Made by a program: the position numbers and the translations under genes. From the sequence record NZ_CP023785.1: a stretch of DNA of 64,000 bases; one strand, 5' to 3'. The DNA comes from a plasmid. Numbering within the stretch: the first letter of the stretch is position 1; every line of letters starts with the position of its first letter. The notes beneath the pieces are model-generated. The model had not been told where the DNA came from, did not search any database, and worked only from the letters and a program-made list of their open reading frames with translations. Shown here piece after piece: positions 8,459-11,413 of the stretch.

Positions 8459-9525
8459 ATATTATTTGTCAAATTAAGCGAGACAAAACTTTCCATTTAC
8501 GTAACTCAAAAAAACTTCTAATGGTGTTTGGTAATTTAGTGATTTTCTAGGGATATGGTTTCTTTTGGACGCAACGGATGAGATGAATCCTTGATTGACT
8601 TGGTTGAATTCCATTTCTTTTGGTAGTCCATCTTTTCGGAGGAGTCCGTTTGAATGTTCATTTAATCCCCGTTGGGAAGGCGTTCCTGGGTCTGCGAAAT
8701 AAATATCAATATCATTCGTATTACTAATACTTTTCCAATTAGAGAATTCTTTTCCACAATCAAAGGTAATTGATTTGAAAAGATTTTTGGGTACGGATTG
8801 AAGCCATTCATTAATCGAATTTTCAATATCAACTGCCTTACGGCCTTCTGGTTTCAAGGCGATAATGGCTTTTGAAAGTCGCTCAACGAGTGTGATGACG
8901 GCACTTTTATGGTGGATGCCGACAATCGTATCACCCTCTAAATGTCCAAACTCTTCTTCGAAAACGACATAATCTTTTTTACGTTCAGAAATATTTCTTT
9001 TGAATGCCTGTTTTCCACGTTTTTCCTTATAACCATTTGGTTTTCGTTTTCCTTGCATCGGTAAATGTAAAACATTGAATTCTCCCGTCTTAAACCGGCG
9101 ATAGAGGGTACTTACTGAACAAGAGAAGGTTCGCTCTGCACGGCCAATAATGACGTCTGGGGTCCAACCTTCAGTTGATCTTTTTTCAATGTATTCTTTT
9201 TCCTCAGCAGGAAAAATGATTTCGGTTCTCCCACAACGTCGCTTATTTTCTTTGTATTGTTCAAAGTATTCAAGTGCTGTTCCACCACATTTGAGAAAGT
9301 TATAGACATTGTAAATTGTTTGGCGTCCACGTTTAAGCTGCTTCGCAACGATAGCAACCGGAGTTTCTTGATGAAAATATGCTTCTATCATTACAAGCTC
9401 GTTTGGTGTAAGATGGGTATAAGTCATTTATGTTCACTCTCCTTGTATGCTTTAGCGGGTATTACAATTTGAGTGTAACATAAATGGCTTTTTTATTTGT
9501 CTCGCTTAATTATACAAACGGCGAA
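8459..9525 (-). mobile_element. IS30-family insertion sequence, copy 1 (~1.07 kb; terminal IRs TTTGTCAAATTAAGCGAGACAAA / TTTGTATAATTAAGCGAGACAAA)
   Basis: The IRs were read at both ends. It encodes a 317-aa IS30-type DDE transposase and is identical to the copy at ~45757..46825. Confidence 0.85.
8474..9427 (-). CDS. IS30-family transposase (317 aa)
   Basis: An N-terminal HTH is followed by a DDE catalytic core (HLEGDTIVG...FDCGKEF...). Confidence 0.9.
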   Translation of the reverse strand: MTYTHLTPNELVMIEAYFHQETPVAIVAKQLKRGRQTIYNVYNFLKCGGTALEYFEQYKENKRRCGRTEIIFPAEEKEYIEKRSTEGWTPDVIIGRAERTFSCSVSTLYRRFKTGEFNVLHLPMQGKRKPNGYKEKRGKQAFKRNISERKKDYVVFEEEFGHLEGDTIVGIHHKSAVITLVERLSKAIIALKPEGRKAVDIENSINEWLQSVPKNLFKSITFDCGKEFSNWKSISNTNDIDIYFADPGTPSQRGLNEHSNGLLRKDGLPKEMEFNQVNQGFISSVASKRNHIPRKSLNYQTPLEVFLSYVNGKFCLA

Positions 9526-9547
9526 ATAAAAAAATAGAGGAATTATT

Positions 9548-9811
9548 ATGAAAAAGAATTTATTATTAGTTTTACCAATTTTAGGTTTTGCGGGATTCTT
9601 TGTTGGTGTACCAATGCTAAGTGCTAACATTGGAATTTCTTCTTATGCAGCTAAAAAAGTTATTGACATAATTAATACTGGTAGCACGGTTGCTACAATC
9701 ATTTCTATTGTTGCTGCAGTTGTTGGAGGCGGATTAATTACAGCTGGTATTGTTGCTACAGCCAAATCATTAATTAAAAAATATGGAGCTAAATATGCAG
9801 CAGCTTGGTAA
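9548..9811 (+). CDS. circular (head-to-tail cyclized) bacteriocin precursor, enterocin NKR-5-3B-like: 23-aa leader + 64-aa core LSANIGISSYAAKKVIDIINTGSTVATIISIVAAVVGGGLITAGIVATAKSLIKKYGAKYAAAW
   Basis: An AGAGGAATTATT-ATG RBS precedes it. The core is near-identical to the recalled 64-aa Ent53B mature peptide and has the helical amphipathic pattern shared with carnocyclin/AS-48-type circular bacteriocins. It ends in W, the ligation partner. Confidence 0.7.
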   Translation: MKKNLLLVLPILGFAGFFVGVPMLSANIGISSYAAKKVIDIINTGSTVATIISIVAAVVGGGLITAGIVATAKSLIKKYGAKYAAAW

Positions 9812-10075
9812 AAAAGGACTAAAGGCGACTTTACAGTCGCCTTTAACTTTCCCAAAGAAAGTTCTTTTTGAGAAATATCGGAAACAAATAAATTGGTCCT
9901 GTTCAACGAAATCATTATTTTTTGTAGCTTCGATTGTTTCCCTTATTTCGGCACTAGTCTTGGGTTTTTTTGATTCTATTTTTTCTAATGTTCTATTTTC
10001 ATTTAGTGTTTTCATTCTATTTCTAAATTATAATTTGCCTTTGATTAGTGATGTTTTCAACATGAAAAAATTCAG
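9795..10075 (+). pseudogene. 5-prime remnant of the downstream circular-bacteriocin maturation/membrane gene, truncated by IS256-family insertion
   Basis: The ORF starts overlapping the structural gene stop, the typical coupled arrangement. Its reading frame runs into the IS left inverted repeat, and the stop codon TAA lies inside the IR at 10083-10085. Confidence 0.4.
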
Positions 10076-11413
10076 GAGAGTATAAAATATTTTGTGTAAA
10101 TGAAAAAATCCATACAAAAAAGGAAGGCGCTTCTGTAGAATAAAGTTAACGACAACCAATTCACAGAAAAGAGGACTTCCCTATGAATGATTTTACTACA
10201 GAAATTGTGCAAACTCTAGTCACTAAAGGCGATTTAAATGAATTATTCCGTTCGCACTTAGAAAAAGCGATAAACACACTCCTACGGACTGAATTAACGG
10301 CTTTTTTAGATTACGAAAAATATGATCGCACTGGTTTTAATTCAGGTAATTCGAGAAACGGTTCTTACTTTCGATCAATCAAAACCGAATATGGTGAATT
10401 AACATTGGAAATACCTAGAGATCGTAATGGTGAGTTTAAACAACAAACTTTACCAGCCTACAAAAGAACAAACGATACATTGGAAACCACTATTATCCAT
10501 TTATTCGAAAAAGGTGTTACGATGTCTGAAATTGCTGATTTGATCGAAAAAATGTACGGTCATCACTATACTCCACAAACCATGTCCAACATGACTAAAG
10601 TTCTGACTGAAGAAGTAAATGCCTTTAAATCCAGAGCCTTAAATGATAAGTATGTCGCTATTTTTATGGACGCTACTTACATTCCACTAAAACGTCAAAC
10701 CGTATCCAAAGAAGCGATTTATATTGCCATTGGTATACGAGAAGACGGCACTAAAGAAGTACTGAGTTATGCGATTGCTCCAACTGAATCAACATACGTT
10801 TGGAATGAGCTGCTACAGGATATTAACTCCAGAGGAGTTCAAGAAGTCTTGCTTTTTATTACGGACGGCTTAAAAGGCATGAAAGATACTATCCATCAAA
10901 TTTATCCTAAAGCAAAATATCAGCATTGTTGTATCCATGTATCTCGTAACATCGCTCATAAAGTACGTGTCAAAGACCGAAAAGAAATCTGTGATGACTT
11001 TAAGGCTGTTTATCAAGCTAACTCAAAAGAAGAAGCGAATACCTTCTTATCCGGCATGATTGAGAAATGGAAGAAAAACTATCCTAAAGTGACGCAGTCA
11101 CTCATAGAAAACCAAGACTTATTAACTTTTTATGATTTTCCACCTAGCATTCGTAGAACCATTTACTCAACCAATCTAATCGAGTCTTTCAATAAGCAAA
11201 TTAAAAGATACAGCCGTAGAAAAGAGCAGTTTCAAAATGAAGAATCACTAGAACGCTTTCTAGTCAGCATTTTTGATACATACAATCAAAAATTTCTAAA
11301 CAGAAGCCATAAAGGTTTTCAACAGGTAACCGATACATTAGTTTCAATGTTTACTGAGTAACTAATTATTTTGCAGGAGGACAATTTATTTACACAAAAT
11401 TATTGACGCTCCC
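10076..11413 (+). mobile_element. IS256-family insertion sequence, copy A (IRL GAGAGTATAAAATATTTTGTGTAAAT; right end ...TTTACACAAAATTATTGACGCTCCC)
   Basis: A 392-aa IS256-type transposase lies between imperfect IRs. There is no clean 8-bp target duplication. Confidence 0.8.
10183..11361 (+). CDS. IS256-family transposase (392 aa)
   Basis: It has the MNDFTTEI... N-terminus and a DDE core. It is 99% identical to the copy at 59653..60831 and ~90% to 50386..51564. Confidence 0.9.
   Translation: MNDFTTEIVQTLVTKGDLNELFRSHLEKAINTLLRTELTAFLDYEKYDRTGFNSGNSRNGSYFRSIKTEYGELTLEIPRDRNGEFKQQTLPAYKRTNDTLETTIIHLFEKGVTMSEIADLIEKMYGHHYTPQTMSNMTKVLTEEVNAFKSRALNDKYVAIFMDATYIPLKRQTVSKEAIYIAIGIREDGTKEVLSYAIAPTESTYVWNELLQDINSRGVQEVLLFITDGLKGMKDTIHQIYPKAKYQHCCIHVSRNIAHKVRVKDRKEICDDFKAVYQANSKEEANTFLSGMIEKWKKNYPKVTQSLIENQDLLTFYDFPPSIRRTIYSTNLIESFNKQIKRYSRRKEQFQNEESLERFLVSIFDTYNQKFLNRSHKGFQQVTDTLVSMFTE

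Follow-up and report, generated by a model that had tools for sequence, protein, structure and literature searches.

The window analysed here, a 64,000-nucleotide stretch of the plasmid record NZ_CP023785.1, carries an intact structural gene for a circular bacteriocin of the enterocin NKR-5-3B (Ent53B) type, and this locus is very probably the dead stump of an operon, enkB-enkB1-enkB2-enkB3-enkB4, on a pLG1-type (rep_cluster_893) Enterococcus faecium megaplasmid, left behind by two insertion sequence (IS) events. One of these involves an IS30-family element directly upstream of the structural gene enkB, the other a copy of ISEf1 (IS256 family) within enkB1. The remnant is common in hospital-associated E. 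faecium, is non-functional and has already been published.

The enkB-like gene (9548..9811, + strand) is an unbroken open reading frame (ORF) for a precursor of 87 amino acids (aa), composed of a 23-aa leader (9548..9616) and a 64-aa core (9617..9808). This division had been proposed in a first-pass annotation of the same DNA, and it agrees with the alignment to the solved structure of enterocin NKR-5-3B (PDB 2MP8), in which residues 24-87 fall without gaps onto the whole 64-residue chain (E = 4.6e-29). The homology to this head-to-tail cyclic peptide covers its full length (residues 1-64), with 58 of the 64 positions identical (substitutions T2S, L5I, A24T, A30S, L31I and T33A), and Leu1 and Trp64, which are joined in mature enterocin NKR-5-3B, have both been kept. 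The precursor scores well above the cut-offs of the circularin A/uberolysin family profile PF09221 in Pfam (65.6 bits, cut-off 23.6) and of the corresponding family profile TIGR03651 in NCBIfam (53.7 bits, cut-off 30.7), and an average mass of 6318.4 Da is predicted for the cyclic core and 6336.4 Da for the linear one. AS-48 and carnocyclin A, circular bacteriocins of subgroup I, belong to the same Pfam/TIGR family, but their structures match the window core only weakly (E = 3e-4 to 1e-3), being distant in sequence and encoded in different gene clusters. The first-pass annotation was therefore right about the hallmarks of a circular bacteriocin and about a core close to that of Ent53B. Its suggestion of a possibly new variant holds in part: the peptide is a variant of Ent53B, although one that is already present in the databases (RefSeq WP_002300807.1, "uberolysin/carnocyclin family circular bacteriocin").

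The precursor encoded by the Ent53B operon of E. faecium NKR-5-3 likewise has 87 aa, divided in the same way into leader (23 aa) and core (64 aa), and the enkB operon has been reported as universal in E. thailandicus (Perez et al. 2016, cited in PMC6131525 and PMC12870466). Compared with the enkB product of Ent53B, the window precursor shows 11 differences in 87 residues (87.4% identity by our own count), six of them in the core and five in the leader. In contrast to the Ent53B operon, the window locus lies on a plasmid between IS elements, enkB1 is reduced to its first 93 codons, enkB2, enkB3 and enkB4 are absent, and no activity has been reported for this version (PMC11275671). Direct sequence comparison places the ribosome-binding site (RBS) of enkB, AGAGGA, at 9536..9541 (+ strand); position 9536 is an A in the window and a G, giving GGAGG, in the two fully intact clusters described below (L031 and L033).

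The next gene, enkB1' (9795..10075, + strand), retains 93 complete codons and a part of codon 94 from the 5' end of enkB1, a membrane-protein gene of 390 codons. Its ATG at 9795 lies 17 nt inside enkB, an overlap with the enkB stop that had been noticed before and that is identical in intact clusters, among them the Ent53B-type cluster L006. Its product shares 78% identity with the 390-aa EnkB1 of L006 over residues 1-96 of the latter (BLASTP), and the homology ends at 10075, within codon 94, where the left inverted repeat of ISEf1 (GAGAGTATAAAATATTTTGTGTAAAT) starts; the frame continues into the element and stops at 10085. The earlier reading of an enkB1 cut after about 93 codons by the left inverted repeat of an IS256-family element was thus accurate. 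Up to position 10075 the DNA is 100% identical to two related contigs, L009 and L032. A word-indexed protein search with the EnkB1 fragment returned other truncated or fused fragments and no full-length EnkB1, and the full-length protein was obtained from contigs that encode related precursors and EnkB2. Nine nucleotides past the enkB stop, in the 5' end of enkB1, there is a hairpin with a perfect 11-bp stem (9820..9845, + strand). The RNA of 9806..9865 (60 nt) folds at -20 kcal/mol (z = -4.55 against shuffles), and the stem has been kept in L006. The hairpin is probably an intra-operon attenuator or mRNA stabiliser, which would set the ratio between the structural-gene and accessory-gene transcripts.

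ISEf1 occupies 10076..11413 (1,338 bp, + strand) and was assigned to the IS256 family through its transposase gene (10183..11361, + strand; NF033543, 384.4 bits, cut-off 150; PF00872, 380.5 bits), its 27-nt inverted repeats and its RefSeq name, "IS256-like element ISEf1". The 8 bp flanking the element are unlike each other (AAATTCAG and AATTAGGA), and the 8-bp target-site duplication of an IS256-type insertion is therefore missing. The explanation is found in L032, in which window position 10075 corresponds to 572 and window position 11414 to 8753, while L032 573..8752 is missing from the window; the two ends of the deletion thus show that 8,180 bp of the ancestral locus have been replaced by ISEf1. 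According to L032, the DNA lost comprised the rest of enkB1, enkB2 to enkB4, a truncated agr-type kinase gene and a block of DeoR, phosphotransferase system (PTS), PfkB and aldolase genes. The right flank of the deletion (11414..11781, + strand) lies in L032 8.2 kb downstream of the enkB1 breakpoint, window 11414..11647 matching L032 8753..8985 at 99.6%. Taken together, the unlike flanks and the missing 8,180 bp indicate an ISEf1 insertion that was followed by, or coupled to, a deletion.

Every gene of enkBB1B2B3B4 has been described as indispensable for production and immunity (review PMC6131525), and the partner genes, with roles drawn from that review and from PMC11275671, were searched for in the whole window by tblastn, using two divergent versions of each Enk protein. 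For the C-terminus of EnkB1 and for EnkB2, EnkB3 and EnkB4, this search gave chance matches only at E <= 1, the best at E = 0.03. A gene of the SpoIIM/DUF95 family was represented in the window by nothing better than a chance match of EnkB2 (E = 0.03-0.045), the ABC ATPase EnkB3 matched no better than E = 0.96, EnkB1 is cut at codon 94 of 390, and for the immunity protein EnkB4 there was no match at E <= 1. The DNA of enkB2-enkB4 likewise found no match by blastn in 72,556 PLSDB plasmids, 101 of which carry enkB. This agrees with the first-pass annotation, which had seen no DUF95/ATPase maturation or immunity genes after enkB1'. In matching plasmid records, the remainder of the window is annotated as toxin-antitoxin genes, operons for sugar PTS and metabolism, and many IS elements.

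On the other side of enkB, between its native upstream region and its RBS, lies a 1,062-bp IS30-family element (8462..9523, - strand). Its DDE transposase (8474..9427, - strand) scores 247.9 bits against NF033563 (cut-off 80), its terminal inverted repeats of 23 nt are 91% complementary, and it is flanked by a short, 5-bp target duplication, AAATA, as seen by comparison with the empty site in L009 and also in L010. Both are draft genomes of E. faecium that share the plasmid backbone but have no IS30 upstream of enkB, and in both of them window 6001..8461 and 9524..10075 are contiguous at 99.6-100% identity, so that the element can be described as a simple 1,062-bp insertion at 8462..9523. The structural gene does lie between an IS30-family and an IS256-family element, as first proposed; the IS30-family element starts at 8462 rather than 8459, and it ends 12 bp from the AGAGGA RBS and 24 bp from the enkB ATG rather than 23 bp upstream of the RBS.

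Further copies of both elements are present in the window. A second IS30 copy (45756..46818) is 99.6% identical to the first. A second ISEf1 (59546..60883, 99.4% identical) lacks a target duplication; its left inverted repeat now occurs at both ends, the right one having been converted to a perfect copy of it. An ISEf1-like element at 50292..51617 (82% identical) is flanked by an 8-bp target duplication (ACTCCTGT). The last 13 bp of the enkB-adjacent ISEf1 match the element at 50292..51617 and not the copy at 59546..60883, and a recombinant of two IS256-family elements was considered for this reason; the idea was dropped, as this terminus probably represents the group's canonical right inverted repeat and provides no evidence of recombination. 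The region has been heavily remodelled by IS elements.

The native upstream region retains two 11-bp direct repeats, TTAGGTACTTT and TTGGGTAATTT, 21 bp apart (8273..8304, + strand), which are visible in the sequence and conserved in L006. A regulator of the LytTR type is expected to have sites of this layout, and intact clusters are accompanied by a gene for one. Judging from these conserved repeats, 8273..8304 probably represents the native, LytTR-regulated promoter region, from which enkB has been split by IS30, and the repeats, together with the agr-like cassette of intact relatives, suggest that the circular bacteriocin was under quorum-sensing control. In the window this region has been moved 1,062 bp farther away from the gene, and the genes for the regulator are missing. 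A consensus scan of the + strand found no sigma-70-like promoter matching at least 9 of 12 positions in 9428..9547, from the start of the IS30 transposase gene to enkB, and none in the 260 bp upstream of IS30. Transcription of enkB has likely been lost.

Some elements of the IS30 family have outward-facing promoter halves in their ends, and the insertion next to enkB, which ends just 24 bp from the ATG, might have brought a promoter that turned enkB on; the first-pass annotation had pointed in this direction by proposing that outward reading from IS30 could alter enkB expression. We consider such an activation very unlikely. The transposase gene is on the minus strand and directed away from enkB, so that the end facing enkB is the one upstream of the transposase gene, and the scan of 9428..9547 revealed no promoter there; moreover, even a transcribed enkB would give a product that could not be matured, its partners being absent in the window. 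On this evidence the IS30 insertion more likely cut enkB off from its promoter than activated it. Just before the IS30 site, a 20-codon ORF (MFSSIHDWLGGLFGGGGKGF, 8393..8455, + strand) with a GGAG-type RBS ends a few bases short of the insertion; it was not taken as coding, being frameshifted in L006. In one database protein (P0014), this ORF is fused to the bacteriocin core.

Complete operons were recovered on contigs with close relatives of the precursor, where enkB (87 aa) is followed by enkB1 (390 aa), enkB2 (149 aa), enkB3 (196 aa) and enkB4 (165 aa), with an agr-like cassette of histidine kinase, AgrD, AgrB and LytTR genes next to enkB4. EnkB3 of the intact clusters is an ABC ATPase. Their EnkB2 is SpoIIM-like, scoring 20.3 bits with PF01944, which is below the Pfam cut-off, and two homologues (P0040 and P0042) carry PF01944. 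When EnkB2 of L009 was used as a query, intact clusters on the same plasmid backbone were found: L031 (ERR3363672), L032 (SRR32903620) and L033 (ERR9295478) encode the identical 87-aa precursor, are identical to the window in DNA across 9548..10075 and retain enkB1 (390 aa), enkB2 (149 aa), enkB3 (195-196 aa) and enkB4 (165 aa). L031 and L033 have also kept the agr-like quorum-sensing cassette, with a class IIa bacteriocin gene in addition in L031. The upstream backbone of L031 matches window 6947..8461, and that of L033 only the 312 bp directly in front of the IS30 site (8150..8461). L032 already has the end of an IS30-family element at the corresponding upstream position, suggesting that IS30 was inserted before the ISEf1 event. 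The identical precursor in these intact clusters, of which L031 and L033 appear to be linked to quorum sensing, implies an uncharacterised natural variant of enterocin NKR-5-3B with six substitutions. In L027, L028, L030 and L031 the agr-like cassette is followed by a class IIa (PF01721) bacteriocin gene and a gene for a putative 88-aa immunity protein, about 6.5-7 kb downstream of enkB; L029 and L033 do not have this pair. Its occurrence in the former four indicates that the ancestral plasmid region was a multi-bacteriocin island, of which no such pair is left in the window.

From these comparisons a sequence of events can be proposed. The IS30-family element would have entered first, 24 bp upstream of the enkB start, moving the native upstream region 1,062 bp away; ISEf1 would then have entered enkB1 at codon 94, and the adjacent 8,180-bp deletion would have taken the remainder of enkB1, the SpoIIM/DUF95-like gene enkB2, the ABC ATPase gene enkB3, the immunity gene enkB4 and neighbouring genes. 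The intact 87-aa precursor, deprived of its cognate machinery, would neither be cyclised nor exported in mature form, nor would it be tolerated by the cell, and no active bacteriocin would result.

The age of this decay can be approached from the coding sequences. A comparison of the variant cluster L032 with L006, of the Ent53B type, gives dN/dS values of 0.10-0.28 for all five genes, indicating that the variant cluster diverged under purifying selection as a working operon before it decayed. The remnant, on the other hand, shows no substitution in 528 coding bases compared with the intact clusters, and the decay is therefore recent. Across about 94 plasmids, conservation is equally perfect in enkB, in the dead enkB1' and in the non-coding flanks. 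This equal conservation shows that the intact ORF reflects recency and clonal spread, with no signal of selection on enkB, and the perfect conservation of the locus would be explained by recent clonal spread of the plasmid.

The decay has also taken other routes. L009 and L010, which lack the upstream IS30, represent a separate one, with an IS256-family element at codon 118 of enkB1 and an IS30-like element at the enkB1/enkB2 boundary, and further hits comprise an extra IS just after enkB in L017 and a duplication within enkB1' of pGK923_1. In three metagenome assemblies (L013, L014 and L015; ERZ27293266, ERZ27293269 and ERZ27293270), it is IS256 proper, with the left inverted repeat GATAAAGTCCGTATAATTGTGTAAAA, that adjoins enkB1'. 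Here the breakpoint precedes that of the window by 2 bp, and other genes, for citrate lyase, follow downstream. Either enkB1 was hit independently a second time at almost the same base, or one IS was exchanged for another. A scan for the precursor in a genome collection with one genome per species gave a distant Clostridium locus only, which is uninformative here.

The stump is widespread. About 98 E. faecium plasmids, 80-290 kb in size, share a 751-bp segment at 100% identity; the four records opened were of plasmid type rep_cluster_893, most of the listed records come from human clinical samples, and the order IS30-enkB-ISEf1-PTS was found in every record inspected. An index of public assemblies lists the exact protein in 1301 blocks, while the cognate EnkB2 (P0031) was read on 10 contigs, and the same stump is present in each of the nine long contexts of this protein. 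In one chromosome-sized record of 2.97 Mb (L021; GCA_050478315.1, CP174970.1), the segment IS30-enkB-ISEf1-ISEfm1-PTS lies within the record, which suggests that in at least one strain the megaplasmid region has been integrated into the chromosome or that the replicons were co-assembled.

The locus has been reported before. A gene 87.3% identical to enkB was found in 19.2% of a hospital cohort (PMC11275671, medRxiv 2024), where only enkB and about 200 bp of enkB1 were present, with insertion elements alongside; the other enk genes were sought in the whole genomes and none was found, and none of seven isolates was inhibitory. That locus is the same object as the one in the window, with no difference in substance, and what is added here are the exact IS boundaries, both ends of the 8,180-bp deletion, the empty-site and intact relatives, and the placement on rep_cluster_893 plasmids. 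A second study reported enkB in 21% of clinical isolates and in 30.3% of 337 genomes, and no activity in four out of five carriers (PMC11808071); no enkB expression data are reported in its text. The preprint of Tedim et al. on E. faecium bacteriocins does not mention an enkB-like gene. The first-pass annotation had regarded a structural gene without its machinery as unusual, which is not so in E. faecium, where a widespread lineage of hospital megaplasmids has this arrangement fixed and 19-30% of genomes carry it.

Several observations weigh against a dead locus. Both the precursor ORF and its RBS are intact, and read-through across IS30 or a weak promoter inside it may still provide transcription. 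For the source strain the search covered the window, and a partner cluster may be located on its chromosome or on other plasmids. Finally, one of the five enkB-positive strains in PMC11808071 showed some activity, with the reservation that all enkB-positive E. faecium in Table 3 of that study also carry enterocin A.

One alternative that makes use of the intact ORF is that enkB is still expressed and that its leader is removed without cyclisation, yielding a linear 64-aa peptide with a residual or different role that would explain its retention. Mutants of garvicin ML lacking maturation genes were still able to make precursor and linear forms (review PMC6131525), the 23-aa leader of the window precursor is hydrophobic, and the ORF is unbroken in about 98 plasmids. 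However, the equal conservation of the non-coding flanks and of the dead enkB1' gives no sign of selection on enkB, the native upstream region has been displaced by IS30 without a sigma-70-like promoter on the + strand, and no inhibitory phenotype has been reported (PMC11808071, PMC11275671); this explanation is highly improbable. A broader version, in which the stranded enkB would be transcribed through IS30 read-through or a weak internal promoter and its product, either linear or cyclised by unrelated machinery, would have a real role in hospital-adapted E. faecium, is given very little credence; if true, it would help to explain why the ORF is intact in roughly a fifth to a third of clinical genomes.

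Least probable of all is that the orphan precursor is matured in trans, with cleavage, cyclisation, export and immunity supplied by a second circular-bacteriocin machinery on the chromosome or another plasmid: the ORF, the RBS and both ligation residues, the terminal Leu and Trp, have survived and the rest of the source genome lies outside the window, but enkB2-B4 are absent from the window and from every PLSDB plasmid, the nine long contexts show the same stump, EnkB2 is rare relative to the precursor (10 contigs against 1301 blocks), and PMC11275671 found neither other enk genes in whole genomes nor inhibition by its seven isolates. Of the two possibilities raised by the first-pass annotation, a decaying locus or one expressed in trans, the former is supported by the absent partners, the 8,180-bp loss and the negative assays, and the latter is unlikely.

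The regions on both sides of the stump contain other features. Downstream, ISEfm1 of the IS982 family (11782..12820) has been inserted about 25-30 bp into a gene for a PRD/Mga-type PTS regulator, with a 9-bp duplication (TTAAAATTA); its IS982-family transposase (11893..12801) scores 253.3 bits. The regulator has 648 aa in plasmids without ISEfm1, such as pTT39_p1, and its longest ORF in the window restarts at a TTG (12878..14743, 621 aa). Upstream of the bacteriocin remnant, the matching plasmid record annotates an AbiEi/AbiEii type IV toxin-antitoxin pair (2078..3652) and a gene for a 40-aa holin-like toxin (approximately 4577..4699), which are typical plasmid-maintenance modules of the megaplasmid backbone.

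The remnant itself opens no new biological question, and its relevance lies firstly in how enkB is read in genome data. On account of this gene, genome mining and surveys count 20-30% of clinical E. faecium as "enterocin NKR-5-3B positive" (PMC11808071, PMC11275671), and some papers take enkB positivity as a capacity for bacteriocin production, for a locus that lacks everything needed to make or to survive the peptide. Secondly, the plasmids and contigs compared here provide a clean, datable series of the IS-driven erosion of a bacteriocin operon on a hospital megaplasmid, leading from an intact cluster with its agr-like cassette, through the loss of the agr-like genes, the IS30 insertion upstream and the ISEf1 event with its 8.2-kb deletion, to further IS hits.

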